Virus record (IMG/VR): IMGVR_UViG_3300047160_007353 | Location: 1-64,000 of that record | Direction: 5' to 3' (one strand) | DNA from: a virus | Taxonomy: Duplodnaviria > Caudoviricetes | Length of the DNA: 64,000 nt | Shown here: piece after piece, positions 13,587 through 61,638 of the stretch | Layout: every line of letters starts with the position of its first letter | Position numbering within the stretch: the stretch's first letter is position 1 | The notes under the pieces: model-generated | Told to the model about the DNA's origin: nothing | The model's input: the letters and a program-made list of their open reading frames with translations, nothing else | Database searches by the model: none | Position numbers and translations under genes: made by a program

Positions 13587-13609
13587 TGAGACCTCGATTT
13601 GAGGTTTCA
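13587..13609. promoter_or_regulatory. 23-bp quasi-palindrome, copy 1 (reverse orientation, variant)
   Basis: TGAGACCTCGATTTGAGGTTTCA; reverse complement TGAAACCTCAAATCGAGGTCTCA; intergenic. Confidence 0.75.
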
Positions 13610-13631
13610 GCGATTTCAGGAGGGGATCGCC

Positions 13632-16600
13632 GTGGGATTGGGCGCCGCGCTCGAATATATCGGCGGTTCCCTGGACAAGCCGGGCCGCGCAGTCAGGGGG
13701 TTCCTTGGCGGCAAACCTCAGGAACTCCTGGCTGCTGTCCCGTTCTCGGACACACTCGGCTTGACCAACCCCAGCGACCGCGTCTCCGGTCGTGACCTGA
13801 CGAACAAGTGGGGCCTGACCAGTCCAAGCGACAGGAGCTGGAACTCCTCGATCGCCGGGTTCGGCGCCGACATCGCAACCGACCCACTGAACCTGATCCC
13901 TGGCCACGCTCTGTATAAGGCTGGCAAATCAGCATGGGGACTCGGCAAGTTTAATAAGGCTCAGCAAGCAGCCACCCACACAGACGAGCTTTATAGGGCG
14001 CTTGTGCCTTCTCTGAGCAGAGGGCCGTCGTCCCCGTCGCTCAGGACGGACTACCTCGACGCGCTACGCGACCCCAGCACCCAGCTTGGAAGACTGAAGA
14101 CCCTAGCCGACTCGGCTGGCGTCAAGGTGTTCCCAAGGGCAGGCATCGATCCTGCCGGCGACCGCAACCTGATGAAACACCTGAACAGGACGTGGCCGGG
14201 TGTCGGTGATTCCGAACTCTACCCAAAGAGCCTGACAGGCAAGGACATCCTCTCCAGCGACGAGGCTTTTCTTCAAGCTGCAAGGATCAACAACAACGCC
14301 GCCAGAGCCAAAGCTCATTACGACTCGAACACACAGTGGATATATCCTCAGACTGTTGACGTCCGCGATTGGTGGTTCAATCCAGGCAAACCGGAAACAT
14401 GGAAGATGTCTAGCGATTGGCTAGACGCGGAGCAAGCAGCGGCGGTAGCAAAACACAATAGATCGATTGGCTACAACCCGTTCGACTACGGAGACAGGAC
14501 GGCAGTCCACGAGATCGGCCACGCCCTGCATCACAAGAGATATGCCGACCAGGGCTATGGACCTGATCAATGGTTTAACATGCACGAAGATAATCCGGAT
14601 TGGCTAAGGGCCTGGAGAGGAGAGATGGTCCCGAGCCAGGAGCCAGGAAGGCGGGTCTGGCAGCCGGGGATCGGCCCAAACGGCGGTCTGGCGTCCCAGG
14701 AAATATCCGAGCGTGCAGGAGCGGACCCTCACGAGTTCGTGGCTGAATCCTTCGCCAAGATGCACGGGGATCTAGCCAGCGGATTACAGGTCAGCCCTGA
14801 AGCCACAATGCCCAAGAGGCTATGGCAGGCATACAACGACGTCTACCAAGGCCCTCCACTTCACAAGGGTCTCCTCGAAACTCTCCGTCGTCTCCAGGGT
14901 GGCAAGACCGCATCACTGAGAACTGATTACCTGGAGAGCCTTGGCAACCCCTCGACCCCGCTTGGCAGGCTTCAAGAGCTTGCCAAATCGACCAGCCGGG
15001 GCATTTCTGTGTTTCCTTATCGCTCCGGCTTCACCCGTTCATCCGTTCGTCCGCCTTACGACCTTCGGAGAGTTCTCAAGAGCGACAAAGCGTTTGAAGA
15101 AAGCATGAGGCAGGAATTCGGGGTCAGGCACCCAGGCGCCTATGCGCTGTACGACGCAGACATCAAGCAAATCGCGCCGAACTTTCATGACCCGTACGCC
15201 GTGAACCTGTGGATGAAGCCAGAATTGATGGCCGAAGAAATGAAAAGAATGGGGCCTGGCAGAGGATCGTGGTTATCCACCTCTGACCCCAATCACCTTG
15301 CTGTTCACGAGATTGGTCACGGATTGCACCATAAAGTCCTTGATGATATGGGTATCTCGTTGCCCGGCAATAGATGGGCTTACGGCAAGATCGGACGAGA
15401 GCTTGGTGTTGATAGCAAGGGTTATTATAAGGCCGATCCCAGGTTGGTTGGACCAATGACTTACAAAGTCTCTGGCTACGCAGCCGATCATCCTTGGGAG
15501 TTTGTTCCTGAAGCTTACGCCAAGATGATTCATGACATGGCCCGGGGGGCTACTCGCGATTTTAGCGAGTCTCTTTCTCCGGAACTGAACGACATCTATC
15601 GATCGCTCGGAGGTCCAAACCCCGAACAGAGCGGAGGTCTAATCGACACCCTCCGTCGTCTCCAGGGCGGCAAGACGTCTTCGCTCAGGACGGACTATTT
15701 TGACGCGCTCAATAACCCCAAATCGGTCTTGGCGAACGCCAAGAGAATGGCTGATACTGCTGGCGTCCATTGGTTCCCTTACTCGGGCGAGCATGGCGGC
15801 GGCATGATTCCCAAGAGTTTGAGCGACCAGGGCTTTAATGACCTTCTTCAGATGCCGCCCAAGTGGCATGCGGCATACTACCCAGAGTATCGATCGATAC
15901 TCCCTAATGCCTACAATCAACCAGAACGATGGTTTTCCAACTACTCGACCAATCCCCTTTACCACGGCGGCGGCTCCCTGCATCCCCTCGCTGACTCCCA
16001 GACTCCCATTCACGAGATCGGCCACGCTCTGCATCACCTCAGCGCCGGCAATCAGTTCCCAGAGCCCAGCCTTCTCGACCGACTTGGATTTCCCGAAGAA
16101 GATCGAGCCGGCTTGACCTCGGGCTTTGGTCACTGGTGGGCCAAGGATCTCGGGATAGGCAACGAGATCGACAGAACCATCAGGGGCTACGCGAGCACGA
16201 ACCCTCACGAATTCGTCGCCGACTCTTACTCCAAGATGGCCATGGATCTGGCCACAAGGAAAGCGGCTGCCCAGTCCGAAGCCCTATCTCCTGAGCTGAA
16301 CTACTTCTACAACAGGTTGCTGGGTCCGAGGGTCACGCCCGAGGTGGTGAATGAAATCAGAAGGCAAACAGGTCTTGGCGCGCCTACTGCTATGGAAAGG
16401 TATCGCGATACTCTCAGAAACCCAGAGGCTTGGGCTCCGCATTTCGAGGCGGAGTTTCCCACCGCCTCCCCAAAGACATATTTCCCGGCTCCGCAGGGCG
16501 GCTTCCTCGGATCAAAGGGAGAGCCTTATGATTGGGGGAAAGCCGCAGAAGACCTCAATTCGGGAGACTGGCACAACTGGCTGAATGATATTGCCGACGA

Positions 16601-18153: not shown

Positions 18154-21100
18154 ATGCCTCCCGGCCTCGATTTGGACTTTGGCATCGGAAACTTCTCGCC
18201 GTCCCTCGGCATGCCCCAGAGGCAGTACGGATACAACCTGCCGCAGGAGCCCGGCGAGAGGGAGTCCTTTGGCCAGGGCTTGATCGAGCGCAGCAAGGGG
18301 GCTCTCGGCTCCATCCTGCATGCCCTGGACTGGCCAGGATCCAAGGTCAGGGGCATACTCGGCGGCAAGCCAGGAGAGTCCCTGACCGGTCGTCAGCTAT
18401 TGAATCAATACGGAGTCACCAACCCTGGCGACAGGGGGTGGGGCTCCTGGGGCGCCGGCCTCGCGGCCGACATCGCTACCGACCCGCTCATGTACGCCAC
18501 CTTCGGCGCCAAGCACGCTCTTACCGGTGGAGGTAGAGCGCTCGAAAAGCTCGGCACGTTCCGAGGGTGGAACCGCAAAGCCATGCTGGAGGGTTTTCAT
18601 GGTGTTGAGTCTGATCTGTCTGCTACTCGTAGCCCTGAGTACATTCGCCATCTCCGCGATGCTGGCCAACGCATTGCAACCCCCGGACAGGAGGCTGCCT
18701 ACCAGGCTGCTACTGGGAAGGCTCTTCGTCCAAACACTCCGATGTCTGGCCTGGCCCGCTTCTCTGTACCTTTCCAGCCTGAGCTTGGCTTTACGGTTGG
18801 TTCCGGAAGACTTGCTCGTAGAATTGCAGGAGGACTCGACCGGGCGGGAGATTTCCTCAGCGTTGGGAATCCCGTATCACGAATGCTCGGAGCCGGTTTC
18901 GATTGGCGAAGACGATCTGCGGTAGACGAGATCAGCCAGAGGGCCGCGATGGCGACGACTCCTTACCGCAAGGCACAGGAGTCGGTCGCTCGCACCAGCG
19001 AGTACCGAACCCTCGATCCGATCAACAAACTCCTTCAGAAGTACCCCAAGAACGAGCACAACATTCAGCGTGCGGTCCAGATCAACGTCGAGAACACCTC
19101 GCCTCTTGCCCTCCTGTCCAGAGCCAAGAACCCGGCACAGAGGCGAGGGCTTGAGCGCCTCCTCAAGGAAACCCAACCCATAGGAGAAGAGATCCGGCTG
19201 AAGGAATCCGAGCAGCTAGCCGAGGCTCACGCCAAGGGGTTGAATCTCCAGAACTCGAACGATCCGTACGCTGAGTACGGGCCTCGGCAATCGACCGAGG
19301 CTTTGCTTGCAGCCAGAGAAGGAAGGGGCGGTCTTCAGCTACAAGAGAGGGGAGTTCTCTTCCCGGGAGGTTCCGGTGCGAACATGCATCGCAAGGACCC
19401 CTTGCGTGGTATACCAGGTGGCACAGACCGGATCAACGATTGGGTCAACAGGTTCGCAGGAGACAAACGAACCAGGAACGCCGTATTCTCTGATATGCTC
19501 GATGATTATATGCATATGCGCGGCGGTTCTGTTCCGACTTCTGATGAGACTCTGGCCCTCTTCAACAAGTCCGGAGAAGTGGAAACATTCCTTAAGGGAC
19601 TTGCACCGAAGACCTACCTCGGTAAGATCAAGCAGCATCCATACTTCTCTCTGGATACTGCGGCGAATGTGCGGCGATCCGGAGAGCAGCATGCCCGAAC
19701 CACATCATCCGCCGAGTCGCTATACAAGGGGATCGGATGGGCAGGACGAAAGGTAACGCCGGCAGAGCTGGCTTCCGGCGAATTCACTGACATCAACTCG
19801 GCGCTCAAGCAGCTCGGTCTCAGGACCTACAAGACCGGCGACCCCAAGGCGTTCTGGAAGGGCGCCCGCGTCGAAGCCTACCGAGCCCTGGCTCCCAAGG
19901 GGGCCGGCGAGGTAGAGCCCCTCATGTCCAGGTACAGCAAGAGGCTCAAAGCTAGCGTCCCTTCCAAGGCTCTTGAGAAGGAGCTGTCCACGGCATGGGG
20001 AATCCCGACGAAGGAACTGGGCAACCTCAAGAAGAGGTACGCCAACTGGATCTTGCCAGAGGAGGGGATCAAGCCAGTCCGGATATGGGACTCGCTGACG
20101 AACAGCTTCAAGGCCCTGTCGTACCCGATCTGGCTAGCTTCACACGTCCGAAACGCAACGACGGCGGCGTACCACAATCTGCTTACTGGCGTAAAAGGAA
20201 AGGACTATGCCAAGCAGTTCAACCTGATGCGTGGAAACTTGCCCGAGTCTGTAGCCGCCGGCATCCGAGAAGGCCAGTATGGGCACGGGCGAATATTCGA
20301 GGAAGGGGGGCCGCACTTGGAGTTGGCGGGAAGTTCTTTGCCCCACCCCGTACCCTCGGGTCGCTCGTGGACGAAATATACCCCGGGGACGAACCGCTAC
20401 GGGCCTGGTCAGAGTGGGCCGACTGGGAGCTTTCTGGGAGACGTGGGCCATCTCCTCTGGAATGAAGGAGCACTCCAATTCGGGAAGGACGTGAAGAAAT
20501 TCGCGGGCGACGTGGGGTCGGAGGTCAAGAAGCAGGGACTCGGCGGGTTCATCAAGAACCTCCCGAGTACCATGGAGAACTGGAAGGGGGCACCGAACCC
20601 GTTCGGGATCAGAGGCGTGGGAGGTCGTCAGCAAGACGTCTTCGGTCCAGTCAAAGTGGGGAGACAGATCAGCACGAACCTTGAGAACTTCTTCCGAGGC
20701 GCGCAGTTCGAGGGTCTCAAGCGGCAGGGCTACTCCTCCGAGATGGCAGTCGAGGTGTTGCGGAAACGCCACTTTGACTACGGGGACCTCGCCCGGTTCG
20801 AGAAGAACGTGGCTCGCCGCGCCGTTCCCTTCTACACCTTCGCCCGGAAGAACCTACCATTACAATTAGAGACGCTCGCGACGCAGCCGGGCGCCTTCAG
20901 TGCCCCGTTCAAGCCGGCAATGGTTGACAGGGACAAGCAGGAATACATTCCCGAGTATCTGGACCAGGGCTTCGTGATGCCGCTCGGTCCAGAGCAGGAT
21001 GGATCGAGGCGATTCCTTTCGAGTCTTGGGCTTCCTCAGGAGGAAGCCTTCAGGGAGTTCAGCACTTGGAACGGACGACCGGACATCGGCAGCAGCCTGA

Positions 21101-21986: not shown

Positions 21987-21992
21987 CGCGAA

Positions 21993-25635: not shown

Positions 25636-25740
25636 CCTGCATTGTCCTCGCTAGGCGTCACGCGCCTAATCAAGAAGTCCTTCAGCAACCCGAAGGGCTA
25701 CTGAAGGACTTCCATGAGATCGGCGCAAACTGTGGCGGCA

Positions 25741-29180: not shown

Positions 29181-29203
29181 TGAAACCTCAATTTGAGGCT
29201 TCA
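29181..29203. promoter_or_regulatory. 23-bp quasi-palindrome, copy 2
   Basis: TGAAACCTCAATTTGAGGCTTCA; overlaps the stop of 29188-29799 and lies 22 nt upstream of the helicase start. Confidence 0.8.
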
Positions 29204-36621: not shown

Positions 36622-36644
36622 TGAAGCCTCAATTTGAGGTTTCA
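36622..36644. promoter_or_regulatory. 23-bp quasi-palindrome, copy 3 (reverse orientation)
   Basis: TGAAGCCTCAATTTGAGGTTTCA; overlaps the stop of the YkgJ-like gene. Confidence 0.8.
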
Positions 36645-43106: not shown

Positions 43107-43129
43107 TGAAACCTCAAATCGAGGCTTCA
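43107..43129. promoter_or_regulatory. 23-bp quasi-palindrome, copy 4 (divergent intergenic region)
   Basis: TGAAACCTCAAATCGAGGCTTCA. Confidence 0.8.
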
Positions 43130-47133: not shown

Positions 47134-48168
47134 TTGGAAACGCGATCCTACAAGCTCGCCGCCTGCCGGTTCCCCGGCAACTCCTCCGAACATCCCGCCT
47201 CTGCCGGCTGGTTCGCCACGACCTGGGCCAACACATGGATGAAGGATGACCGGATCTCGGACGTCATCCCCCTCCGTCTGTCCGACACGCCGATCTCGAT
47301 GTCGAGAAACAACATTGTGTGGGCGGCCCTGGAGCACGGAGCCGACTACATCCTCATGCTCGACTCGGACATGAAGCCCGACTGCGAGCCAGACGGCAAA
47401 CCGTTCTGGTCCAGCTCGTGGGACTTCATGATGGAATATCGAGCGCGCGAAGAGGCGTACGCCAGCAACATGAGGGCGGTTCCCTGGACCGACGACTCAG
47501 AATCGATCGAGACTTCGTGCAGGCGGCTCTATCCCCCGGCCACGATCGCCGCGCCGTATTGCGGCCCTCCGCCGTGGGAGGTCGTCTACATGATGAAATG
47601 GGTCCGCGACGAAACGAACTCCCCCACCGACCCCAGGCCCTACCACCTGGAAATGTTCGACCGCGACCACGCCGCCGACTTCACCGGGATCTTCGAGGTA
47701 GCCGCCATGGCCACCGGGCTGATCCTCTATGACGCCCGGGTCTTCAAGGAGCTTCCGCCGCCCTGGTTCTATTACGAATACGAAGACAAGTTCCACAAGA
47801 GGAAGGTGAGCACGGAGGACATCGTCCAGACCCGCAACGCCAGTCTTCTGGGCTTGCCCCAGTATTGCAACTGGGACTCGTGGGCTGCCCACATCAAGCT
47901 GAAGTCTGTGCGCAAGCCGCGCAAACTGGACGTTTCCGCCGTCCCGAACGCCTTCGCCGATGCGGTCCGCAAGGGAACCAGGGGCAATCACAAGGTCGTG
48001 ATCGTTGGAGACAAAGAGGACCAGTTCGAGCGTCCCCGGATCGTACGGCCCGGCTACCCCGACTTCAGCCACCAGGATTCCGGTCTCACCCAGGAGCCCC
48101 CGCCAGCCTTCTTTTTCGGGGCCTCGACGGCTATTCCTGGGCTAAAACTCCCTGAAACCTCAAATTGA
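47134..48168 (+). CDS. GT-A fold glycosyltransferase (GT2-like)
   Basis: RNNIVWAAL..GADYILMLDSD (DxD), ATGLILYDARVF..LPPPWF, STEDIV. Confidence 0.8.
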   Translation: METRSYKLAACRFPGNSSEHPASAGWFATTWANTWMKDDRISDVIPLRLSDTPISMSRNNIVWAALEHGADYILMLDSDMKPDCEPDGKPFWSSSWDFMMEYRAREEAYASNMRAVPWTDDSESIETSCRRLYPPATIAAPYCGPPPWEVVYMMKWVRDETNSPTDPRPYHLEMFDRDHAADFTGIFEVAAMATGLILYDARVFKELPPPWFYYEYEDKFHKRKVSTEDIVQTRNASLLGLPQYCNWDSWAAHIKLKSVRKPRKLDVSAVPNAFADAVRKGTRGNHKVVIVGDKEDQFERPRIVRPGYPDFSHQDSGLTQEPPPAFFFGASTAIPGLKLPETSN

Positions 48169-48175
48169 GGCTTCA
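48153..48175. promoter_or_regulatory. 23-bp quasi-palindrome, copy 5
   Basis: TGAAACCTCAAATTGAGGCTTCA, overlapping the glycosyltransferase stop. Confidence 0.8.
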
Positions 48176-49583: not shown

Positions 49584-49594
49584 AGCTCATCCTC

Positions 49595-53203: not shown

Positions 53204-53686
53204 TCAGAAAAGGTCGAGAAACGGTTTGTCTGGGCAGATTATCCCTACATTTACTTTTACCCCAGGCTCAGAACCCCAGAGACGAATTATCTCTTGGGCG
53301 CAGACCTGGTTGTCGTTGAGGAAAATCGTGCCCTGGATGCCGTCTTCGACTGCTTTCAAGAGATTGGTGCTGTCGGGAAGTGCCTTGCCTAGCTTCTTCC
53401 AGCGAGAATGGCTGGGTATCCACTTGAAGCGCGGATAGCAGAGCTGGCCGTGAAGTGATTCGTCGTCTGAGCGGATCGTGAACTGGCAATAGAGGTAGAT
53501 CGGTTCAACGGACGGCTCGTAAGGCCATGCGTCCCTGGCGGCTTCGCCAACCTTCTCCTGCCATTCGATGAGTTCGGGCTTCTTCCGGGCACCCCCGAAG
53601 CGCCCCACCAGCGGAGCGCTCCAGGGTATCGGCGTGCCCACCGCTTCGAAGTGAATCGAGCGAGAAAGGTTGAGGCTCAGGGTCAT
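53204..53686 (-). CDS. rusA: RusA-like Holliday junction resolvase
   Basis: PDSTNLLKAVEDG...LNDNQV motif; N-terminal GTPIPW. Confidence 0.8.
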   Translation of the reverse strand: MTLSLNLSRSIHFEAVGTPIPWSAPLVGRFGGARKKPELIEWQEKVGEAARDAWPYEPSVEPIYLYCQFTIRSDDESLHGQLCYPRFKWIPSHSRWKKLGKALPDSTNLLKAVEDGIQGTIFLNDNQVCAQEIIRLWGSEPGVKVNVGIICPDKPFLDLF

Positions 53687-54624
53687 GGATTTGAGGTTTC
53701 GCGTATCCCGCCGCCCAACATCCATCCGTTAGGATACCGGGCGTCCAGCTTGGCCATGTTCGCGCGGGCACATTCAGCAAGAGATGTGTTAAACAGGGCG
53801 CACAGGGCATCCAGGGAGATCAGGACGAAGAAGACGCTCTTGGCCTGGTCGTCAACGTTCTGGCCTTTGCGGTGCCATCGGATCTTCTTGAACCGGTTGG
53901 ACAGCATTCCGGCGTTTGCCGACATCTCAATCAGGACATCCTGGCATTGATGTAGCCAACCGATAAGGTTCTGCTGGACCTCCTGGGGGGCGTCATCCAG
54001 CTTGGAAATCATCTGGGCCGGGATCTTCATCACGGCCATGTAAGACGCCGCGAATCCGGCGGCCTGCTCGTCCGGGATCATCCGGCCGATCTCGCCTCTC
54101 CCCCGCAGTATGGATTCGTCGATCGTGTCGGCGACCCACGAGGCGGTGAAGATCACGTCACCAATCTCGTCCCGGATCTTTGTCAGGAACTCCGGGCTGA
54201 CCAGGCCGCTGTCGGCTCCAAGGATGACGGTTGACAGCTCGGCCACTTCGCCGACGCACTCGTGGATCGCCTGGTCCATCTCGTCGAGCCAGATCGGCGC
54301 ACGAAGGGCGGATGGCTGGCACTTGGTTTCACGCCACTGGCAGTAGTCCTGCCAGGTCAACTTGGTTTCCTGTTTTGCTGGAGTTTCCGGCTCAGGAAAA
54401 TCGACTGTTTTGGGAACGATGATTCCTCCCCTGGATCGCTTCTCCTCTTCCGGGAAGAATCCGCCGTTCTCAGGCCCGTAGCCGCCAGGCGTACGAACCT
54501 GAGCAACCGGCCCCACGTTCACCGGCCGCTTGATGCCGACCTTGCGGTCGCGGGACTGACGGCCATCCCTCAAGGGGATGCTGTCTGGAAGCAGTTCGGT
54601 CTTGTTGCCTTCTTCTCTCATCAT
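53683..54624 (-). CDS. MazG-like nucleoside triphosphate pyrophosphohydrolase
   Basis: HECVGEVAEL...KIRDEIGDVIF and LAECARANMAKLDARYPNG motifs. Confidence 0.75.
   Translation of the reverse strand: MMREEGNKTELLPDSIPLRDGRQSRDRKVGIKRPVNVGPVAQVRTPGGYGPENGGFFPEEEKRSRGGIIVPKTVDFPEPETPAKQETKLTWQDYCQWRETKCQPSALRAPIWLDEMDQAIHECVGEVAELSTVILGADSGLVSPEFLTKIRDEIGDVIFTASWVADTIDESILRGRGEIGRMIPDEQAAGFAASYMAVMKIPAQMISKLDDAPQEVQQNLIGWLHQCQDVLIEMSANAGMLSNRFKKIRWHRKGQNVDDQAKSVFFVLISLDALCALFNTSLAECARANMAKLDARYPNGWMLGGGIRETSNP
53689..53700. promoter_or_regulatory. Half-site of the 23-bp quasi-palindrome
   Basis: ATTTGAGGTTTC at the MazG-like stop / RusA start junction. Confidence 0.5.
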
Positions 54625-55133
54625 TTCTCCTTGATCGTCAGGTGCTCGATCTTCTCCACGATCAAGCCAAACATCACGAGGTTCTTGTCTGCTGTCTTGC
54701 TGCCCATGTTCCTCACGTTGAGACCATAGGACACCTTCACGTCCGGTCCAACACCGTCGAACCTGACGGCCTTGCACCCAACATAGAGCCGGATCGGTTG
54801 GGAGCTAATGGGGGCCTTTCCAGGATGGAGGTTCTCTGGCATCTTGTCGAAACCGTAGAGCTTGGTGGCCATCTTGATGATGGTGACCTCGTCACCCGTG
54901 AGTCTGCCGGTTCTCTGCACGACAACGTTTCGAGCGGGCTGCCCGGTCTGTGTCCTCCATGTGCACTTCCAGTTACCACTGGGCTCGATCTCGATCACGC
55001 GTCCGAGGCTCGGCGTCATCTTGTTGTCAACGAACAAGTTGATCCGGGGATTGTAGTCCACTACTGCCTTGTGGTGGGGTTGGAGGGATGCCAGAAACAA
55101 CGCAATGATGGTGCTCACTTTCCACTTCTCCAC
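54621..55133 (-). CDS. Hypothetical protein with possible signal peptide
   Basis: 170 aa, N-terminal STIIALFLASL. Confidence 0.5.
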   Translation of the reverse strand: MEKWKVSTIIALFLASLQPHHKAVVDYNPRINLFVDNKMTPSLGRVIEIEPSGNWKCTWRTQTGQPARNVVVQRTGRLTGDEVTIIKMATKLYGFDKMPENLHPGKAPISSQPIRLYVGCKAVRFDGVGPDVKVSYGLNVRNMGSKTADKNLVMFGLIVEKIEHLTIKEK

Positions 55134-56266
55134 TTCCTGATTCTAGCTGGAATCAGCTTGTCTACCAGTACCGGGTTCAGTTCACAACCAAGCCAGTCCC
55201 TTCCGTTCATCTCGGCCGCGAGAGCCGTGGTGCCGGCTCCCATGAATGGGTCGAACACAATCGGAGGAACATACAGAGGTGCACAGGGGCATCCTGTCCA
55301 CCCCAATGTTTCTGTGTAGCAAACATGCCTCTGGGGGTCCTTCTTCGCCTTGCCGGCCGGGTCAACCTTCACGTCGAGGCCAGGGCGGGTCGGAACCCGG
55401 TTTCTTGCCAGAAACCTCGTGTAAGGTTTCCCGCAGCCCTCGCAGTTTCCCTTATCTGATGTCGAGCACTTGATCAGTCTGGAGGCCAGCTCCACCGGCA
55501 TCGCTGCGAAGAAATCAGAGTCAACCTCCTTGCAGGTACATTCCGGGTATCGAGGCGCCTCGATCCAAATTAGCTGATCGTTTCCGTGCAGAGGACAGTC
55601 CGGATTCACTTCCATGTACTTGCCGCCGGTCTTGAAGTCCGACATCAGCCTCCTGCCGTTGATGCCAGTGGTCGGGATCGTCCAGACCGATCGCGGCTGA
55701 GAATAAAGAGTGCGGCCTTCTTCGTGCTGGTACTTCGACTTCTCCTGTATCGCGTACCCGTCGTAGTAGTGGTCGGCGGTCTTGGTGAACATGAAGACCG
55801 ACTCGTGTGAATAAATCGGATGGCGCCCGGAGAAGTGCGGATTCGAGTTTGGTTTGTTCCACACTAGCTCTACGACGAGACGCCACCCGCATGACCGTAC
55901 GACAGAAGCGAGACGATGCGGCACATCGAGACACTCGCCTTCCCGACTGTCGGACGGGCATAGCTTCTTGTTCTTGCTGTTACACCAGGTGTCCCCGATG
56001 TTCAGCCAGAACGTCCCCGTGGGTTTTGTGATCTTGAAAATACTCTTGGCCAGAACCTCCATCTCCAGGAGGTAATCCGCCAGTCGCCGACCTCCGACCT
56101 CCTTGCTCTTCAAGGGACTGTCTTCAGGCAGGTAAGACCTGAGGCCCCAGTACGGAGGAGAGGTTACGGTTGCATCCACGAACTCGGCAAAGCCTGCCTT
56201 CTCCCAGCTCCAAAGCAAGGATAGGCAGTCCCCGTGATACACTTTGCCGAGTTCGGGATGGTTCAA
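55115..56266 (-). CDS. N4-cytosine / N6-adenine DNA methyltransferase (beta class)
   Basis: TSPPYWG (catalytic) precedes FDPFMGAGTT (SAM-binding); TTG start 56266 after ggagg; Cys-containing inserts. Confidence 0.9.
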   Translation of the reverse strand: MNHPELGKVYHGDCLSLLWSWEKAGFAEFVDATVTSPPYWGLRSYLPEDSPLKSKEVGGRRLADYLLEMEVLAKSIFKITKPTGTFWLNIGDTWCNSKNKKLCPSDSREGECLDVPHRLASVVRSCGWRLVVELVWNKPNSNPHFSGRHPIYSHESVFMFTKTADHYYDGYAIQEKSKYQHEEGRTLYSQPRSVWTIPTTGINGRRLMSDFKTGGKYMEVNPDCPLHGNDQLIWIEAPRYPECTCKEVDSDFFAAMPVELASRLIKCSTSDKGNCEGCGKPYTRFLARNRVPTRPGLDVKVDPAGKAKKDPQRHVCYTETLGWTGCPCAPLYVPPIVFDPFMGAGTTALAAEMNGRDWLGCELNPVLVDKLIPARIRKWRSGK

Positions 56267-56270
56267 CGGA

Positions 56271-58619
56271 TTAACCTCCGGTAAGGAAGGCGGTCTGCCA
56301 GTCGCGCCACGCCTGGCCGCGAGGGCTGACCCGCGAGAGCCATGCGTTGTTGGTGGCGTCGTAGGGGATGTTTCTGACCTTGCCGTCCCTGGCGTCACCG
56401 AAGCCGGGCGACTGCCCTGACCAGGAGTAGATGCCCCAGGTCGCGCCGTTGGCGTTGACTTCCAGGGTGTGAGCGTAAAGGGTCAGAAGATCCAACCCGA
56501 GGTTTTGCATCGTACTGTAGTAGCATAGCTCAGTGTCGTAGGCGTCCGGGTGGTCCTTGGCATCCCAGGTTCGCGGGATCTGGTTCGTGGAGCCGATCGG
56601 GCAGAACCGCTCCAGGGCACCCTCGTAGCTCCATCGCTTGACCCTTCCTCCAAGCCAGGTCTCGTAGGTAGTGATGGCCAGCATCGCCGCTTGAAGTTGA
56701 GTGCCGGCAGTGAGGTTGTCGGCAGAGTAGGTCAGCCACGCCCGGTAGAGACTGTTGAGCTGGCGGGGCGTGAAGGCGTTGGTGGTGGCCGCCCATGCCG
56801 ACGGAAGATCCAGGTAGGGAGCAAACCCGATGATGTCTGCCCGAACGTTGTGGGCGATGGCGGCGCCCGTGACCTGACCCAGAAGGCCCATGTTCCAGTA
56901 CAGTGCTAACTGTACATCCGCTGCCCTGGCTCCGAAGACGGTCTTGAAGATGTTGACCACTTGCTGGGTCCGGAGAACCTCGTAGGTCGCACTGAAACCG
57001 CCAGGAGAGTAGAGTTGACTGCCGAGGGCATTGGCAACGAATGTCTGAGTGAAGGCTGAGTTCCAGTTCTCGTTGGCAAGTTCCGGAATCACTAGCTGGC
57101 CCGCAACCGAGTTGTTGAGGACCTGAGTCGCGATCGCCGTAACGCAGGCGTCATTGGCAGCAATGGGGATGGGGATGTGGATCGCACATCCCTTGTACTT
57201 CGAGGCGGCCGCCGACACGAAGTAGTAAGGCGTGAAACCGCCAAAGGGGCTGTTCTGGTGAGCCGTGGCGCTCGCTCCCAGGACAGTCGTAGCCGTGACC
57301 TGGGATGCTGTGTTGTTCGGAAGTCCGGTCACAGGCCCGAAGTAGACGAACTGGGTGGAGTTCACCGGGAAGCAGAAGACTGCCGCCCCCGAAATCGTGA
57401 ACGGATTGCCGGCGATCGTGAAGGCGGTTGGCGCGCCAAACGAGAGCGAGAGCATCTGGCCGGTCTGGAATCCGTGGGCCGCCGCACAGGTACAGAGACC
57501 GACCCAGTTTGCTCCATAGTTGAAGCGGCTGAGGTTGGCAGCCGTCATCGGGACCAGCGTGCCGTCAGGAGCGGTGTAGGACAGCGATCCATCCGAGGGG
57601 CACGGGTCGATCTGGGTGATGCTGACCGTCGCGTTGGGTTTGGGACTGACGGCCCACGGCATGGGGCCTGTCCCTGGAAGATCGGTCGCAAGAACCGTGT
57701 TGCTCTGCCCGGCCGAGGCGCAGGTGTCGATGAATCGCAGGCTCGAAGGACCCTTGCTGCCGATTCGGATCTGACTGTCGATGCTCTGCTCGAAGCAGCC
57801 GTTTCCGCTGTCCCCGTAGTTGTCTACATTGTTGGCCATGTAGATCCGGGGATTGGTGTAAGACGGTGAGTTGGTCGGGTGGACGTTGCACCGAAGAGCC
57901 AGGATCGGGTTACGGGTCGTGTTGGAAGCGCTGGGAACAATCGAGTAGATCCTCGCGGTTCCCGTGGTTCCGTTTCCGGTCGCGCCGCCGATCTGGGTGA
58001 CCGTGAAGTTGGCGTCCGCAGCCACGATATCCAGGGTCGTGCGAGGGTCGGCGGAGTCCCAGATCAGAGTAACTGTCCCCGAGAGAGTCGGAAGGTCCTG
58101 AGGACTGGAACCGAGCGTATCGAGGGGAGTGTAGGATGCAGCCTGAAAGATGTTCTGACTACCGAAGCCGGGCGTCAGACTGGTTACGTTGCCGGCAGAG
58201 TCCAGTGTGCGGGCGGCACTATCCCAACCCGAGAGTCTCTGTGCGAAGTTCTTGGGCATCCCCTGTAGGGAGCCCCGCGTCAGTCCGCCGTGGGCGAAGT
58301 TCATGCCCAGGGCCATGGTCTTGGTGGCGGGCAAGGGGAAGTCGGTCTGGCATGCGTAGTTGGTGACCGGCAGGCTCAAGGCCGCCGCACCCGAGTACCA
58401 CTGGGCAGGAGCCGTGACGCTGAGGGCGTTGTAGGCGTTCACGCCCACGCCGGGAGGCAGGGTGAAGCTCCAGAAGTTGGTATCGACCGGGCCGGGGGTC
58501 AGAGCGATCGGGTTTCCGTCCGCCATGAGGGTCGGAGGAATGAGAACCGGGGAGGTGGCTCCCGGGTTGCGGATGATCAGAAGTGTGCCGCACTTGGCCA
58601 TGTACGCAGAGAACGCCAT
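56271..58619 (-). CDS. Glycoside-hydrolase-like TIM-barrel protein with beta-rich inserts (candidate depolymerase)
   Basis: IHIPIP..ANDACV...IPELANENWNSAFTQ, IIGFAPYL, SYEGALE and TWG match the pattern of the family often annotated as cellulose-binding domain protein; AHGFQTGQ FCCH-like insert. Confidence 0.55.
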   Translation of the reverse strand: MAFSAYMAKCGTLLIIRNPGATSPVLIPPTLMADGNPIALTPGPVDTNFWSFTLPPGVGVNAYNALSVTAPAQWYSGAAALSLPVTNYACQTDFPLPATKTMALGMNFAHGGLTRGSLQGMPKNFAQRLSGWDSAARTLDSAGNVTSLTPGFGSQNIFQAASYTPLDTLGSSPQDLPTLSGTVTLIWDSADPRTTLDIVAADANFTVTQIGGATGNGTTGTARIYSIVPSASNTTRNPILALRCNVHPTNSPSYTNPRIYMANNVDNYGDSGNGCFEQSIDSQIRIGSKGPSSLRFIDTCASAGQSNTVLATDLPGTGPMPWAVSPKPNATVSITQIDPCPSDGSLSYTAPDGTLVPMTAANLSRFNYGANWVGLCTCAAAHGFQTGQMLSLSFGAPTAFTIAGNPFTISGAAVFCFPVNSTQFVYFGPVTGLPNNTASQVTATTVLGASATAHQNSPFGGFTPYYFVSAAASKYKGCAIHIPIPIAANDACVTAIATQVLNNSVAGQLVIPELANENWNSAFTQTFVANALGSQLYSPGGFSATYEVLRTQQVVNIFKTVFGARAADVQLALYWNMGLLGQVTGAAIAHNVRADIIGFAPYLDLPSAWAATTNAFTPRQLNSLYRAWLTYSADNLTAGTQLQAAMLAITTYETWLGGRVKRWSYEGALERFCPIGSTNQIPRTWDAKDHPDAYDTELCYYSTMQNLGLDLLTLYAHTLEVNANGATWGIYSWSGQSPGFGDARDGKVRNIPYDATNNAWLSRVSPRGQAWRDWQTAFLTGG

Positions 58620-60268
58620 CAGAAGAATTCCCCTTGTTTCAAGATGATCTGAGACACGATCGAGGCGGCTTCCTTCTGGGTTGCCGTTCGGGCCTGCTCC
58701 TCCGAGACGCCGGATTCGAGCATGCGCTTAACGTACTGGTGAGAAGCCAGTCCCTTTTTCTCCCGGCTCTTGAGTTTCGAGATGAGGCGGGACGCGCCCC
58801 AGAGGTTCATTGACTGCGCGTTCTCGACGCCCATGGATGACAGAAGATCGACCTGAGCCCTGGTAGCCTCACCGCCGTAGCGCGAGTTGAAATCCTTCCC
58901 ACGGCGCATTCTGAGGTTTAGAACCTTGCCGATCCCGAACGGGGTCGAGTCACAAGAACTATAGATCGTTGTGAGCTTGCCAGTGTAATGAACCTGAACG
59001 ATCCCTCTCCGGAGATCGTTCTCGATCCCTTTCAGTTCCGCAAGGACGTCGATATCCCTGTCCTTGTATTCCTTGCTCCTGAGTCTCTTTTCGAGGATCT
59101 CCATCGCCTCATTCTTTTCCTCGGAGCAGAACAGGTCATGAGCCATGCAGAGCCGGCGGCTACGGTCGTCAGTCTTCCAGTCCAGGTCCAGGACCAGGCA
59201 GTTTGTCTTGCCGATCGAGGGGCAAAGCCTGAGCCCCCTGCCGACCCGCTGAGCGAATACGGATCTCTTTTTCGTGGCGCGGGCGTTCACCACGCAGGAG
59301 ATGCTCGGCATGTCCCAGCCTTCGACCAGCAGATCGCTGCAAGTCACGACCTGGGTCTCCCGCTCCTTGACCCGGTTGAGGCGTTCTTTCCTGACCTCTC
59401 TGGTTATTCCGTATTCCCCTCCTTCTCCAGCTACGTACTCGGCCTTGCGGCCCATCTGGCGGAGCATATCCGCGACCAGAGAGGATGACCCGCGGTCCGG
59501 ACAGAAGACCACTGTCTGGCGGTCCCCGATGTTTACATGGATCTGGTAACAAAGGCGCTCGATCTCTGGGCTGAGCCGGTCGGCCAGATCCCCGGCGTTG
59601 AAATCGCCGCCGGTCGTCCTGATCCCTCGGAGGTCCACGGGAACCTTGATCCTTCGGAGGGTATAGGGCACCAGATAGCCATTCTCGACAGCGTCGCGCA
59701 GGCGAAGCTGGTATCCGATCTTGTCGAATATTTCTCCCAGGTTTCGCTTGGCGGAATCTGGCGTCGCCGTAATACCAAGGACTTTGGCTCCCTCGAAGTA
59801 GGAAAGCACGTCCTGGTAAGACTTTGCGCCGGCGTGGTGTGCTTCGTCTACAACGATGAGACCAAAATGATCCTTCGGGAATCTGCCAGCCATCCGGTCA
59901 GCGTAAAGGGACTGAATGGTGGCCACCACGACCTGAGCCTGGAACCCCTTCTCCTTGGACCAGTCATCATGAGAAAGGGAACCCGACTCTATGGCGGTGT
60001 CGAAGTCGAAGGCCTTCACGTAGGTATTTGCTGCTTGCTCGATCAGCTCCGTCCGGTGAGCAATGAACAGGACGGGGCTGCCGATGCTTTGAAGGAACCA
60101 GTCAGCGATCAGGCCCGACGTGATCGTTTTTCCGGTTCCGGTCGGCATGGCAACAAGAACGGCGTTGTGGCCGCTTCTCCATGCTTCCACAACGCCGCAG
60201 AGAGCCTCGATCTGGTATTCCTCCCGCCTGATGGTCGGCGGGAGGACCAGAGTTCTGGGATCGAGCAT
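58619..60268 (-). CDS. SF2 DEAD/DEAH-box helicase
   Basis: MPTGTGKT, IVVDEAHH, GITATP, EGWDMP, QRVGRGLR. Confidence 0.92.
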   Translation of the reverse strand: MLDPRTLVLPPTIRREEYQIEALCGVVEAWRSGHNAVLVAMPTGTGKTITSGLIADWFLQSIGSPVLFIAHRTELIEQAANTYVKAFDFDTAIESGSLSHDDWSKEKGFQAQVVVATIQSLYADRMAGRFPKDHFGLIVVDEAHHAGAKSYQDVLSYFEGAKVLGITATPDSAKRNLGEIFDKIGYQLRLRDAVENGYLVPYTLRRIKVPVDLRGIRTTGGDFNAGDLADRLSPEIERLCYQIHVNIGDRQTVVFCPDRGSSSLVADMLRQMGRKAEYVAGEGGEYGITREVRKERLNRVKERETQVVTCSDLLVEGWDMPSISCVVNARATKKRSVFAQRVGRGLRLCPSIGKTNCLVLDLDWKTDDRSRRLCMAHDLFCSEEKNEAMEILEKRLRSKEYKDRDIDVLAELKGIENDLRRGIVQVHYTGKLTTIYSSCDSTPFGIGKVLNLRMRRGKDFNSRYGGEATRAQVDLLSSMGVENAQSMNLWGASRLISKLKSREKKGLASHQYVKRMLESGVSEEQARTATQKEAASIVSQIILKQGEFF

Positions 60269-61581
60269 CAGGTCCAGTCCTCAAGTTTCGGATGGTAGGC
60301 GCCGCCGTAGCAGCCTTTGCACGCGTCTTCGGTTTCCTTGTCCTTGCCCGTGCCCATGCAGGTCCCACAGACCAACCAGTCGCGGGGATGCGCCATGCGG
60401 GAAATCTTGGCCACCGAGTGAAAGAAGAAGCCGTTGCCGTCAGGATGGCGCGTCTCCAGGCAGTATTTCTTCCAGGGCTTGCGGATTCGCGCCACGGACT
60501 CGTAGATCCGCCGGTACAGGATGGCGTCGCGACGGAAAGGACCTTTGCGCTGGAGCAAGGCCAGGAGGCGGTGGCAGTGGCGGGCAAGCCATTCGTCGTC
60601 GGTGAGGTCGGCCTCCTTCGTCCTCTTCTTCTCCTCGTCCTCGGTGCTGGCCTCCTCTTCGGCATCCGAGCCAGCCGCCTTCTTCTTTCCGCCGGAACGG
60701 GCCTTTGGGGCTGCGGCCTTCTTCTCCGCCGCCTTGGCGCCGGCCGTCTTCTGGGCCACCCGCACCGCCTCGTCGTGGCTCATGCCGGCCGCGATCATCT
60801 TGATGGCATTGTCCACCTCCTCCTGGTCCTTCAGGGAGGCCAGCTTGGCGGCGACCTCGTCGTTGCAATTGCTCGCGTGGAGGGCCTTGAGCTGGTCCTC
60901 GGTCAGATTGTTGACGATCGTGCACAGGCGCTCCGCCGAGGACTTCGCGATCCCCAGGGCGTTCATCAACACCTGGTAGAAAGGCGTGTTCTCCTCCGCG
61001 ATCTCCTTGCGACGTCCGTCGATCCGCTCGGCCCGCTCCTCAGTGGTCGGCTCGGACTTCTCCGCCTCGATCTCGGCATCAACCTGCTTTGCCGCCTCCT
61101 TCTTCTGCCGGAAGTTGGCTCCGGTCCCGTGGGCCAACGGATAGCGGGCCTGGTGGATCGAGGACCAGTCCTTGATGGACAACTTCGTCTGAAGCTCGTC
61201 GAGGCCCATGCGGAAGAGGTTCTCCGCGTACTCCATGGCCTTCGCGAGTTGTTCGTCCAGGTCGGTGGCGACCCGGCACGGGATGTCAGTCCAGTTCAGG
61301 ATCTTGGCGCAGGTGTAGACGCGCTTGCGTCCGCAGATCACCTTGTAGGTCCCGGGCTTTCCAGCCACCGGCATCACCACCGGGAGCTGGATCAGTCCGT
61401 CCTTGGTGATCGAGTCGGCCAGGGAGTGACAGAAGTCCTTGGTAAACGGCGTCCTCGTCGTATCCGGTTTCTCGATCGTGAGACATTCGACCGGTATCGT
61501 TTGTTCGGTCATGTGTTCGTATTGCTCCGTCTGTGCGGTGGTGTTGGTCAGGAGGGTGTGGGTTGTCATCGGCGACGACAT
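60268..61581 (-). CDS. ParB/Srx-domain protein with C-terminal CxxCxGxG zinc finger
   Basis: LADSITKDGLIQLPVV...VICGRKRV...ENLFR (ParB-like N-terminus); CGTCMGTG...CKGCYGG. Start is 61581 or 61512. Confidence 0.75.
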   Translation of the reverse strand: MSSPMTTHTLLTNTTAQTEQYEHMTEQTIPVECLTIEKPDTTRTPFTKDFCHSLADSITKDGLIQLPVVMPVAGKPGTYKVICGRKRVYTCAKILNWTDIPCRVATDLDEQLAKAMEYAENLFRMGLDELQTKLSIKDWSSIHQARYPLAHGTGANFRQKKEAAKQVDAEIEAEKSEPTTEERAERIDGRRKEIAEENTPFYQVLMNALGIAKSSAERLCTIVNNLTEDQLKALHASNCNDEVAAKLASLKDQEEVDNAIKMIAAGMSHDEAVRVAQKTAGAKAAEKKAAAPKARSGGKKKAAGSDAEEEASTEDEEKKRTKEADLTDDEWLARHCHRLLALLQRKGPFRRDAILYRRIYESVARIRKPWKKYCLETRHPDGNGFFFHSVAKISRMAHPRDWLVCGTCMGTGKDKETEDACKGCYGGAYHPKLEDWT

Positions 61582-61615
61582 AGAAGCATAGGTCCCTTCG
61601 GAAGCGGGAATCTCG

Positions 61616-61638
61616 TGAAACCTCAAAACGAGGCTTCA
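61616..61638. promoter_or_regulatory. 23-bp quasi-palindrome, copy 6
   Basis: TGAAACCTCAAAACGAGGCTTCA, upstream of the ParB-like gene. Confidence 0.8.

Follow-up and report, generated by a model that had tools for sequence, protein, structure and literature searches.

The genome of this phage, a virus of Planctomycetes bacteria, carries a 23-bp near-palindrome dispersed at gene junctions, and we give an even chance to the reading that these sites are docking points for the phage's own ParB/Noc/KorB-family protein, on the basis of site position and of the co-occurrence of site and gene. By analogy, their function would most likely be akin to that of parS, NBS or OB. A preliminary description of this DNA had offered three explanations for the repeat: an operator of a genome-wide dimeric regulator, an mRNA hairpin, or a crossover site for a serine recombinase. 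We favor the first, and our candidate for the regulator is the ParB-like protein that the description had itself named.

The window analyzed here is the first 64,000 bases of a virus record of 75,334 bp, whose whole genome we call G000. These 64 kb contain six copies of TGAAACCTCA-N3-YGAGGYTTCA (23 bp each, 0-3 mismatches to the pattern), compared with 0 pattern matches in dinucleotide shuffles (n=100). They begin at 13587, 29181, 36622, 43107, 48153 and 61616 and occur in both orientations, as the preliminary description had reported, and the half-site that it had noted at 53689 is also real (GAAACCTCAAATC on the minus strand). Two further copies lie beyond the window, at 64527 and 67342, bringing the G000 total to eight; a genome scan found no other dispersed repeat. 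The sites, together with the Rad52-like gene, are as follows.

13587..13609: motif copy 1, TGAAACCTCAAATCGAGGTCTCA on the minus strand, between ORF 12872-13564 and a giant ORF (GTG 13632)
29181..29203: motif copy 2, containing the stop codon of ORF 29188-29799 (minus strand)
36622..36644: motif copy 3, containing the stop codon of ORF 36629-37249 (minus strand)
43107..43129: motif copy 4, in the control region from which a leftward ORF (ATG 43080) and rightward ORF 43210-44388 diverge
48153..48175: motif copy 5, containing the stop codon of ORF 47134-48168 (plus strand)
53680..53702, minus strand: degenerate remnant in which one half, GCGAAACCTCAAATCCATGACCC, is still good, where a RusA-like gene meets ORF 53683-54777
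61616..61638: motif copy 6, containing the stop codon of ORF 61623-61979 (minus strand)
63389-64489, minus strand: Rad52-like gene, of which the window holds the 3' part (63389..64000)
64527-64549 of the genome, outside the window: motif copy 7, 37 nt before the Rad52-like ATG
67342-67364 of the genome, outside the window: motif copy 8, 29 nt before the portal gene

All G000 copies fall outside ORFs or at the extreme end of one, in a genome that is ~90% coding. Their reported placement at gene junctions upstream of gene starts holds for all eight, with the next start codon 20-40 nt on and a Shine-Dalgarno sequence usually 7-8 nt on. Copy 1 is 8 nt from the AGGAGG of the giant ORF, a helicase-like ORF (26283-29159, minus strand) begins 21 nt beyond copy 2, and ORF 35969-36601 (minus strand) begins 20 nt beyond copy 3. 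Copy 5 is followed by a sigma70-like promoter match (48216-48244); genes in the interval 43210-48870 gave no family matches, which leaves 'capsid module', a label from the preliminary description, putative. Copy 6 precedes the ParB-like gene by 34 nt (ATG 61581) to 103 nt (ATG 61512), and copy 7 lies in a divergent region where the Rad52-like gene faces the terminase gene (64904). The flanks, previously described as conserved, are so in part: GTGAAACCTCA and GAGGCTTCAGC each accompany five copies, not all. ORFs that run into the motif end in EASN, ETSN, ETSN and EASF directly before the stop codon; the ending ETSNP, given in the preliminary description, was not reproduced. The symmetry breaks among the G000 copies are uniform, 12/12 being T-to-C in the same arm.

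Relatives of G000, found via terminase and portal and sharing synteny with it, were phages and prophages of Planctomycetota. Each has its own dispersed palindrome of 21-33 bp, with lineage-specific arms.

G003: ATGTSGTGCCAAATTGGCACSACAT, 9 copies
G004: GCATGAACGCCAAATGGCGTTCATGC, 10-11 copies
G006: GCAAAGCTCATTATGACCTTTGC, 8 copies
G007: ATTTGTCAGWCTGACAAAT, 7-8 copies
G008: ATARNGRTCACWGTGAYCNYTAT, 4-5 copies
G009: ACTTCGGCTCAAATGAGCCGAAGT, 20 copies, in 31 kb (49% of the genome)
L025: 5 copies
L151: 8 copies

The Rad52/terminase region holds a site in 6/6 genomes that include it, and the junction downstream of portal holds one in the five fully mapped genomes, with an L151 copy just beyond the portal match. 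A G006 site occupies the junction homologous to that of G000 copy 2, and G003 has a full site at the junction homologous to the half-site at 53689; one G004 copy lies within the tape-measure gene. Conservation in related phages, a point raised by the preliminary description, was found as palindromes of the relatives' own with some junctions in common: site turnover is lineage-specific at partly conserved junctions.

Scans of full phage and host genomes, which that description had proposed, placed eight copies in the phage and, in the hosts of relatives, copies in prophage or phage-linked stretches. The G007 motif has seven matches in a 10.7-Mb Singulisphaera genome, all inside a 51-kb stretch with the portal locus. 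The L151 motif, scanned against an 8.5-Mb MAG, has six copies on a 42-kb portal-bearing contig and two on a second contig, plus one extra 2-mismatch match elsewhere that is chance-like. The motif is phage-private, the phage link in the L151 MAG being established for the portal-bearing contig only. The earlier remark that it is neither CIRCE nor a LexA box was right, the sequence being private to the phage and different in each related lineage. REP/BIME-type host repeats, which number in the hundreds chromosome-wide, do not correspond to a G007 motif confined to a prophage stretch and an L151 motif on two contigs.

The candidate binder is encoded just beyond copy 6.

60268..61581, minus strand: orphan ParB/Noc/KorB-fold protein, 437 aa, with a ParB N-domain (GxxR, ENxxR), an HTH and a C-terminal CxxCxGxG...CxxC zinc ribbon

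It matches Pfam ParB_N at E 3.6e-7, over the curated cut-off, and phmmer matched it to PDB ParB 6t1f. In its AlphaFold model (pLDDT 77), residues 16-283 superpose on the NTD+HTH of Noc 7nfu_A (Z 12.9, 203 aligned), on ParB 6t1f_D (Z 13.3, 185/187 aligned) and on KorB 8qa9_A (Z 12.1, 200 residues). The DBD-DNA complexes 4umk, 6y93, 6s6h and 1r71 match residues 106-295 (Z 4.9-6.2), and the model places an HTH DNA-binding domain directly after the N-domain. Residues G84, R87, E120, N121 and R124, which make up the nucleotide-binding motifs of box II (GxxR) and box III (ENxxR), show no variation among 9 homologues; the box II sequence is GRKR/GRHR instead of GERR. The Pfam ParB C-domain found no match in the protein, and residues 385-437 hold an invariant HPxxW and a CxxC...CxxC zinc ribbon. 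ParA-type ATPase families PF13614 and PF01656 were unmatched in six frames of complete G000, with positive controls, and no Cro/CI-type HTH was detected in G000, G006 or G007, whose genomes are complete or near-complete. A ParABS partition system was rejected, G000 having no ParA-type Walker ATPase and one relative being an integrated provirus.

Motif and gene are physically linked in several lineages. In G000 and G003 the ParB-like gene has the phage's own motif immediately upstream. In G007, G008 (a degenerate copy) and L151 the phage's own motif is inside the variable linker-coding part of the gene, and no other clearly intragenic copy was seen in the sequence covered for these three. L031 and L057 carry a single perfect 23-25 bp palindrome at the same place in the gene. 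By a rough estimate, association in 5/7 testable genomes would arise by chance with a probability of ~0.002. No copy was found within 3 kb of the G006 gene, nor in or beside the gene in L025 and L021. Gene and motif are both present in G000, G003, G006, G007, G008, L025 and L151 and both absent from G005, a co-occurrence that is confounded by phylogeny. Despite its 20 motif copies in 31 kb, G009 showed no ParB-like gene within the 49% of the genome searched.

Docking of the ParB-like protein is supported because the motif is the sole dispersed repeat of the genome, with 8 copies where chance would give 0, because relatives have palindromes of their own, some at common junctions, with the motif phage-private, and because what is conserved is sequence, not structure. 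It is also supported because the protein fold fits and the motif is linked to the gene, because the two occur together where testable, because ParA is missing from G000 and the Cro/CI-type HTH from G000, G006 and G007, and because there is published precedent in KorB at OB (PMC11790492) and in phage ParB-fold proteins (PMC12704722), which are common on phages and prophages. The same reading is weakened because the genome with most copies, G009, yielded no ParB-like gene in the part searched and has the motif before each of two other genes, for a 95-aa Cro/CI-type HTH protein and a resolvase-like protein; because G006, L025 and L021 have no copy at the gene; because the G004 tape-measure copy makes intragenic copies not exclusive to the ParB-like gene; because sites of 23-33 bp with a 2-5 bp center are longer than parS, NBS or OB; because of the divergent box II and a C-terminal domain that is a zinc ribbon; and because of the phylogenetic confounding.

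In the mechanism we propose, a ParB-like dimer would read the two motif arms via its helix-turn-helix domains. Conservation of the nucleotide-binding motifs in the N-domain points to a CTP-type switch, with clamp closure and spreading from the sites as possible consequences. The sites stand at the heads of genes or operons (at the Rad52/terminase divergent region, at the portal junctions and ahead of the ParB-like gene), and the likely outcome would be genome-wide control of phage transcription, either as prophage silencing or as timing with autoregulation. Plasmid partition would be a less likely role than transcription control, given the lack of ParA and the integration of a relative into its host chromosome. 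Binding, nucleotide switching and regulatory outcome are all predicted from sequence, and site and protein diverge together from lineage to lineage. A broader proposal, which we put forward tentatively, is that an NTP switch, an orphan protein of ParB fold ending in a zinc ribbon, drives the transcription programme of a whole Planctomycetota phage clade, that it loads at ~8 (range 1-20) sites of 21-33 bp that are private and deliberately asymmetric, and that the protein-site pair diversifies between lineages like immunity specificity. If true, this would be a phage counterpart of plasmid KorB, in a role usual for CI-type repressors. A literature search found no paper describing this phage motif/ParB-like system.

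KorB of the IncP-1 plasmid RK2 (PMC11790492; 8qa9, 1r71) is likewise a mobile-element ParB-fold protein (NTD plus HTH) whose short palindrome, OB, is dispersed over the element at or near promoters, and its role is global transcription and not only segregation, as we infer here. Loaded at OB operators as a CTP clamp, it silences promoters as distant as 1.5 kb (PMC11790492). The partners of KorB are a ParA, IncC, and KorA, which locks the clamp; here no ParA was found, and a counterpart of KorA is not known. At its core OB has a perfect palindrome of 13 bp, compared with 23 bp (up to 33 bp in G006), a spacer and constant asymmetry here; the KorB element is a plasmid, whereas the present protein belongs to a phage, ends in a zinc ribbon, and is predicted to bind its sites and use CTP. 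Noc at NBS and chromosomal ParB at parS (7nfu, 6y93, 6t1f, 4umk) give the best fold matches (NTD plus HTH, Z 12.9-13.8), and Noc, which is an orphan too, is a ParB paralogue with binding sites at many dispersed palindromes. Unlike the system here, Noc and ParB belong to chromosomes, have sites of 14-16 bp and end in a canonical dimerization domain; Noc tethers DNA to the membrane, whereas nothing here suggests segregation or nucleoid occlusion. Lin and Grossman, in 1998, reportedly described a parS site inside the B. subtilis spo0J gene, which parallels the palindromes inside the ParB-like gene. The linear phage-plasmid N15 is said, from work of Ravin and Lane (1999) and of Grigoriev and Lobocka (2001), to have dispersed SopB centromere sites. 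Like the present phage, N15 encodes a ParB-type protein and has a number of inverted-repeat sites distributed among its phage genes. It differs in having SopA (a ParA) and plasmid replication, where the present genome lacks ParA and one relative sits in a host chromosome. The extended start-associated sequences (ESAS) of Cluster K mycobacteriophages (PMC3203893) are, like the present sites, inverted repeats just 5' of the translation starts of a gene subset, with a consensus that differs by sub-lineage and positions conserved by gene family. ESAS have two 17-bp arms, a variable 4-13 bp spacer and a 13-bp asymmetric SAS, in one orientation on one genome arm; the sites here have a fixed 2-5 bp center and no SAS and lie on both genome arms in mixed orientation.

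We consider it unlikely that the sites are instead operators or roadblocks ('stoperator'-like) of another phage regulator, for example an immunity repressor co-evolving with its sites, with the ParB-like gene simply regulated. The family is temperate (the Singulisphaera provirus, integrase or recombinase genes), most G000 proteins are without family assignment, so that a binder could hide among them, and in G009, where 49% of the genome showed no ParB-like gene, the motif directly precedes the Cro/CI-type gene. Heteroimmune repressor-operator pairs also show lineage-specific sites: Cluster A stoperators (PMC6550527, PMC9283540) are, like the present sites, dispersed (a few to dozens) in short intergenic gaps of temperate phages and co-vary with the phage's DNA-binding protein, and genome-wide silencing is plausible in both cases. 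However, Cro/CI-type HTH proteins went undetected in G000, G006 and G007, and another regulator leaves unexplained why intragenic copies (three lineages) and perfect palindromes (two) fall in the same part of the ParB-like gene. Moreover, the asymmetric 13-14 bp stoperators are targets of a monomeric repressor with two domains and mostly point the same way relative to transcription, whereas the 23-bp sites here are dyad-symmetric with mixed orientation relative to transcription (4:2 in G000, 3:2 in G006, 3:2 in G007), which sets aside Cluster A stoperators themselves.

Less probable still is an RNA element, an intercistronic hairpin between stop codon and next RBS that acts in mRNA processing, stability, attenuation or translational control. 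The order in all genomes is stop codon, motif, 3-20 nt, Shine-Dalgarno, start, and hairpins of -8 to -31 kcal/mol are predicted in G000, G003, G004 and G006. Confinement of T-to-C changes to one arm leaves one strand with G.U pairs, and that strand is the mRNA at 4/6 co-directional G000 sites; the A.C-mismatched strand, however, is the mRNA at the other 2/6, and orientation is mixed in G006 and G007 too. Some G003 copies have copy-specific complementary flank extensions, and the left arm of G009 late-operon sites is able to pair with the downstream SD. Against this, G006 conserves a C.C/G.G mismatch, one half is invariant and the other never its exact mirror in G000, G006 and L151, and the conserved variant half-sites of G007 and G009 give predicted folds of 0 to -8 kcal/mol (5/9 G007 folds and the G009 late class) with sequence kept nonetheless. 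A need for structure alone would not keep the sequence identical across a genome, and copies occur in divergent promoter regions and within a coding region. The flanks of all eight G000 copies contain no T-runs, a terminator scan (36000-50000 and genome 60001-68000) called 0/5 sites, and evident phage terminators (1075, 41016, 48543) differ in look; with two sites in divergent regions, an intrinsic (Rho-independent) terminator is ruled out. Recognition of the motif as double-stranded DNA by a phage protein is favored because sequence, not hairpin stability, is conserved, because orientation relative to transcription is mixed, because perfect symmetry is avoided in a constant manner and because no U-tract follows the motif. 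The hairpin option of the preliminary description is correspondingly weak.

Its recombinase option fares worst, and we regard it as very improbable that the copies are crossover sites of a small serine recombinase or short PeSL/REP-like repeats at boundaries, multiplying by copy-paste and favoring the exchange of modules. With 10-12 bp arms on either side of an A/T center in ~23-26 bp, the motif has a layout similar to that of hix or res site I. G000 encodes a 299-aa resolvase-type recombinase, G009 has the resolvase-like gene with the motif before it, and Rad52-like and RusA-like recombination proteins are phage-encoded; identical, consistently asymmetric copies, together with an identical variant half-site in six G009 copies, imply copying or gene conversion. 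Yet essential genes would be lost or scrambled by recombination among 8 to 20 sites in both orientations, whereas gene order is conserved among relatives despite up to 20 copies in 31 kb, so that the synteny breaks envisaged earlier did not appear. Pfam scans revealed no Y1/RAYT-type transposase, and the motif, unlike REP, keeps to the phage and is missing from the host genome. Four sites compared with contigs of 4 soil metagenome runs gave no joint, on unitigs of 150-300 bp with coverage too thin to count. Site positions are conserved across lineages whose motifs differ, which fits maintained function over recent mobility.

We searched the phage sequence for the 23-bp near-palindrome TGAAACCTCA-N3-YGAGGCTTCA, allowing up to three mismatches, and recovered all six copies of the preliminary description (13587, 29181, 36622, 43107, 48153 and 61616); 100 dinucleotide-preserving shuffles gave no match, compared to six in the window. 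Two further copies, at 64527 and 67342, lie beyond the window and bring the genome to eight. A whole-genome k-mer screen revealed no other dispersed repeats, and the top repeated 11-mers all came from the motif. When all copies are turned to one orientation, one arm is exactly TGAAACCTCA in every copy, and the second is its mirror with T-to-C changes at position 19 (seven copies), 14 (four) or 20 (one). None of the eight is a perfect palindrome. All lie between ORFs or over stop codons, even though about 90% of the genome is coding, and 20-40 nt separate each from the next start codon. Five sit 7-8 nt ahead of a Shine-Dalgarno sequence, and the copies at 43107 and 64527 are in divergent regions. 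The motif was also said to shape the C-termini of unrelated proteins; ORFs reading into it do end in EASN, ETSN, ETSN and EASF, and the end ETSNP was not reproduced. The degenerate half-site described at 53689 (53680-53702, minus strand; RusA-like gene junction) is real, and the relative G003 carries a full site at the matching junction.

The virus record, whose first 64,000 bases make up the window, spans 75,334 bp and is 100% complete according to CheckV. Its main blocks are as follows.

1-23445, plus strand: tail genes, including a presumed tape-measure protein of 1318 aa
23545-43101 and 49371-64537, minus strand: genes for replication, recombination and regulation
Within these minus-strand blocks: a serine recombinase of 299 aa
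Within these minus-strand blocks: RusA, helicase, ParB_N protein, Prim-Pol and Rad52
Starting at 64904 and 67394, next after the minus-strand blocks: terminase and portal

The RusA-like, Prim-Pol and Rad52-like genes occupy 53204-53725, 62308-63261 and 63389-64000, and two DNA methyltransferases (DUF6094 type, N6_N4_Mtase) are encoded at 34406-35689 and 55115-56398. There are also two sigma-like proteins, at 24890-25465 and 52475-53200 (both minus strand): one is a sigma factor of 191 aa with regions 1.2, 2 and 3 and without region 4, and the other, which matches region 2 weakly and nothing else, is kept in the relatives G003, G006, G007 and G008. PDB sequence searches returned chance-level matches for the sigma-like ORF and no match for the ORFs at 53683-54777 and 56271-58619.

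A megablast search of 50,697 phage records produced no DNA-level relative of 43000-49000. A portal profile identified 145 related viral contigs, together with prophages or contigs in Singulisphaera sp. GP187, two Planctomycetales MAGs, a Fimbriiglobus MAG and an Opitutaceae MAG; these matches indicate that the clade infects Planctomycetota and neighbouring phyla. It includes temperate members, since G007 is classed as a provirus. Phages of Planctomycetota, the hosts here, are almost unstudied. Single-protein locus searches with the portal and with the helicase were each without result, and ParB-like searches with a 4-row alignment or with homologue P0003 added no new loci.

Motif scans of viral and metagenome contigs showed that the 23-mer is absent from the relatives. 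Each instead has a dispersed palindrome of its own that is built alike, with 8-15 nt arms flanking a centre of 1-5 nt. The centre is usually A/T-rich, but not in G007 and G008. The local palindrome is the dominant repeat in every motif-bearing genome, and G005, a more distant relative, has no such palindrome.

Dispersed palindromes of related phages and contigs (genome, palindrome, copies)
G003: ATGTSGTGCCAAATTGGCACSACAT, 9 in 28.7 kb
G004: GCATGAACGCCAAATGGCGTTCATGC, 10-11 in 29.6 kb
G006 (complete, 70 kb): AAAAGGCAAAGCTCATTATGACCTTTGCCTTTT, 8
G007 (provirus): ATTTGTCAGWCTGACAAAT and variant half ATTCTTCAG, 7-8
G008: GGAAATARNGRTCACWGTGAYCNYTATTTCC, 4-5
G009: ACTTCGGCTCAAATGAGCCGAAGT, 20 in 31 kb
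L025: CTGGGCAAATTGCCCAG, 5
L151: GCGATGACCAAAATGGKCATCGC, 8

Some junctions are shared between lineages. A site is present in the divergent region between Rad52 and terminase in each of the six genomes containing that region; the post-portal junction has one in five fully mapped genomes, with an L151 copy just past the portal match; and five carry one before the portal or after the terminase. Shared junctions combined with differing motifs imply that the element is old and maintained, and that its sequence has been replaced in concert within each lineage.

These sites appear confined to phage DNA. Allowing up to two mismatches, we found seven copies of the G007 motif in the 10.7-Mb Singulisphaera assembly, all within 5,231,532-5,282,476, the stretch with the portal locus. 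In an 8.5-Mb MAG the L151 motif has eight copies, of which the 42-kb contig with the portal carries six and another contig the other two; one extra 2-mismatch match elsewhere in the MAG looks like chance. Such confinement rules out a regulator of host origin and a REP-like repeat spread over the host genome. Two sets of candidate relatives were rejected. Matches to GAAACCTCAAATTGAGGTTTC occurred once each, in coding sequence, in eight AT-rich viral contigs (L002-L009), and these look-alikes are a coding stretch (DWKPQIEVSKKLKNLA) of one conserved gene, hence chance; the 41 metagenome contigs with single matches all lacked protein similarity to the phage.

Three lineages with differing palindromes share a short element, AAGCTACC, in the divergent Rad52-terminase region, 25-40 nt away from the motif (genome 64550-64600, or 4550-4600 of piece L001; G003 ~16090-16130; G006 ~16480-16520); it may be a promoter element. 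One G004 site, GCATCAGTGCCAAATGGCACTGATGC (piece L016:3427-3452), departs from consensus at three arm positions, all mirrored in the other arm; it may represent a second specificity or a product of palindrome correction. G009 has two site classes (examples at L107:12938-12961 and 19916-19939 and, on piece L108, at G009 21886-30701). The symmetric class lies mostly ahead of early genes, and the second (ACTTCGGCTCATTTGATACAAAGT) lies in the late operon, 10-12 nt before start codons and with 8 of 10 in one orientation; its left arm is able to pair with the downstream Shine-Dalgarno sequence instead of its own right arm. In the Singulisphaera prophage G007, the k-mer screen detected a tandem array of ~54-bp repeats (piece L101:8163-8520).

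We interpret the element as double-stranded DNA recognised by a phage-encoded binder with two-fold symmetry. The only recognisable DNA-binding protein common to the motif-bearing G000 (the phage under study), G003, G006, G007, G008, L025 and L151 is the ParB_N protein, a 437-aa product of 60268-61581 (minus strand) that is missing from the motif-less G005. Across nine homologues, GxxR and ENxxR are invariant in the N-domain, which is followed by an acidic linker of variable sequence, then by an HTH-like segment in which one Arg is invariant and the recognition helix varies, and finally by another linker and a C-terminal domain. All nine end in an invariant HPxDW and a CxxCxGxG...CxxC (DnaJ-type) zinc ribbon (window 60268-60420), apparently in place of the canonical C-terminal domain of ParB. 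In an AlphaFold model (mean pLDDT 77), residues 16-283 superimposed on the NTD+HTH of Caulobacter ParB (6t1f_D; Z 13.3, 185/187 residues), Noc (7nfu_A; Z 12.9, rmsd 4.5 A, 203 residues) and KorB (8qa9_A; Z 12.1, 200 residues), and residues 106-295 matched the DNA-bound HTH domains of Spo0J, Noc, ParB and KorB with Z 4.9-6.2.

The motif also tends to lie in or beside the gene for this protein. In the phage under study, copy 6 is 34-103 nt upstream of its start; G003 has one copy just upstream and another just downstream; and G007, G008 (degenerate) and L151 carry their own motif inside the gene, in the part encoding the variable linker (alignment columns ~189-215); for each of these, the sequence examined contains no other copy that is clearly intragenic. 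The idea was formed on G000, G003, G007 and G008, and five further lineages were then inspected. Three have a palindrome at the same place: in L151 it is the dispersed motif of that contig, in L031 a perfect 23-bp palindrome, and in L057 a palindrome of 25 bp, also perfect, whose product is the run ALAAAANA. Neither L025 nor L021 has one there, and G006 has no copy within 3 kb of the gene. Given ~8 sites per 65 kb, ~17% of genomes should by chance have one in a 1.3-kb gene or no more than 60 bp from it; one was present in five of the seven genomes that could be tested (P ~0.002, our binomial estimate). ParB systems are known to place binding sites within or next to the gene for the protein, and a parS site reportedly lies inside B. 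subtilis spo0J (Lin and Grossman 1998).

The reading we prefer, which we consider about as likely as not, is that the sites serve this orphan ParB/KorB-type protein for docking or loading. The protein would then regulate phage transcription across the genome, that of its own gene included, as a simple dimer bound to the operators or else as a clamp that is gated by NTP and spreads from the sites. KorB on RK2 provides a precedent (PMC11790492), and similar roles are described for VirB and BisD, other ParB-like proteins of mobile elements (PMC10770331, PMC12409273). The systems that appear closest in working are KorB-OB and Noc-NBS, whose fold, motifs, HTH and site in or near the gene are all present here. 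A partition system differs in its partner feature, ParA: no ParA-type ATPase is encoded by G000. Phages and prophages commonly encode ParB-fold proteins, with roles there that are largely unknown (PMC12704722), and we found no paper on orphan phage ParB proteins with genome-wide private sites. Here an orphan phage ParB gains concrete candidate DNA targets and a testable job, the genome-wide control of phage expression, and at least eight related lineages with different sites form a natural series for the evolution of ParB-type DNA specificity (compare PMC7383237).

Certain observations fit the ParB reading poorly. G009, the genome richest in sites, shows no ParB-like gene in the half of its genome that was searched, and its Cro/CI-type HTH gene is preceded by the motif; one G004 copy lies inside the tape-measure gene; the sites are longer than known ParB-family sites; and the C-terminal domain appears non-canonical. 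The binder could instead be an unrecognised repressor with stoperator-like sites, which we regard as unlikely, though the best placed of the rivals. Stoperators are alike in logic and unlike in form (PMC6550527, PMC9283540). No Cro/CI-type HTH was detectable in six frames of G000, G006 or G007, and PHROGs and Pfam searches of ~60 G000 ORFs turned up no small regulator, whether of the Cro/CI, RHH or another type. The start-associated inverted repeats (ESAS) of Cluster K mycobacteriophages also resemble the sites, and their function is unknown (PMC3203893).

An RNA hairpin between stop codon and ribosome-binding site is less probable still. That position, predicted hairpins of -8 to -31 kcal/mol in four genomes and the fact that every departure from symmetry in G000 leaves G.U pairs on one strand all speak for it. 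Yet the G.U-keeping strand is the mRNA at only four of six co-directional G000 sites, and both G006 and G007 show mixed orientation (3:2 each). Every G006 copy retains a C.C/G.G mismatch; of nine folds in G007, five reach only 0 to -5 kcal/mol, and in the late-operon class of G009 eight near-identical copies fold at -4 to -10 kcal/mol, the sequence nonetheless being kept in both. Some copies occupy divergent control regions, the motif is not followed by a U-tract, and the obvious terminators of the phage (1075, 41016 and 48543) are A-tract/GC-stem/T-tract hairpins of unrelated sequence. Structure alone, moreover, does not need sequence identity within a genome. The tight Shine-Dalgarno spacing may simply be an outcome of compaction, in which a 23-bp site must fit junctions of 25-65 nt.

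That the copies are recombination or boundary elements, including sites of the serine recombinase, is very improbable: gene order is conserved in relatives, where synteny breaks had been suggested as a check. Four soil DNA runs gave only 150-300 bp unitigs against 29000-48999, too little to weigh either way; the sole joint listed (32435 to 45640, with a 22-nt side) touches no site. We leave the remaining probability to something not considered.

Three genomes show a systematic imperfection in the symmetry of their sites. In G000 all variation is confined to one half, the other being invariant; in L151 the half GCGATGACCA is invariant and the other varies at position 7 only, where C, G or T occurs but not A, the mirror base; and in G006 the halves differ at position 7 in every copy. 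This constant asymmetry may reflect unequal half-site roles or avoidance of long perfect palindromes.

Promoter readings were dropped, as there is no space for a transcription start ahead of the Shine-Dalgarno sequence: an ECF-like promoter (TGAAAC-N16-CGT) has a downstream element that is not conserved, and a -10-like role for the motif centre does not suit the composition of the G007 and G008 centres. Elsewhere in the window, ~200 nt in which the ORF caller placed no gene lie between a perfect sigma70 consensus promoter (TTGACA-16-TATAAT, 46771-46798) and a strong terminator (46976-47000).
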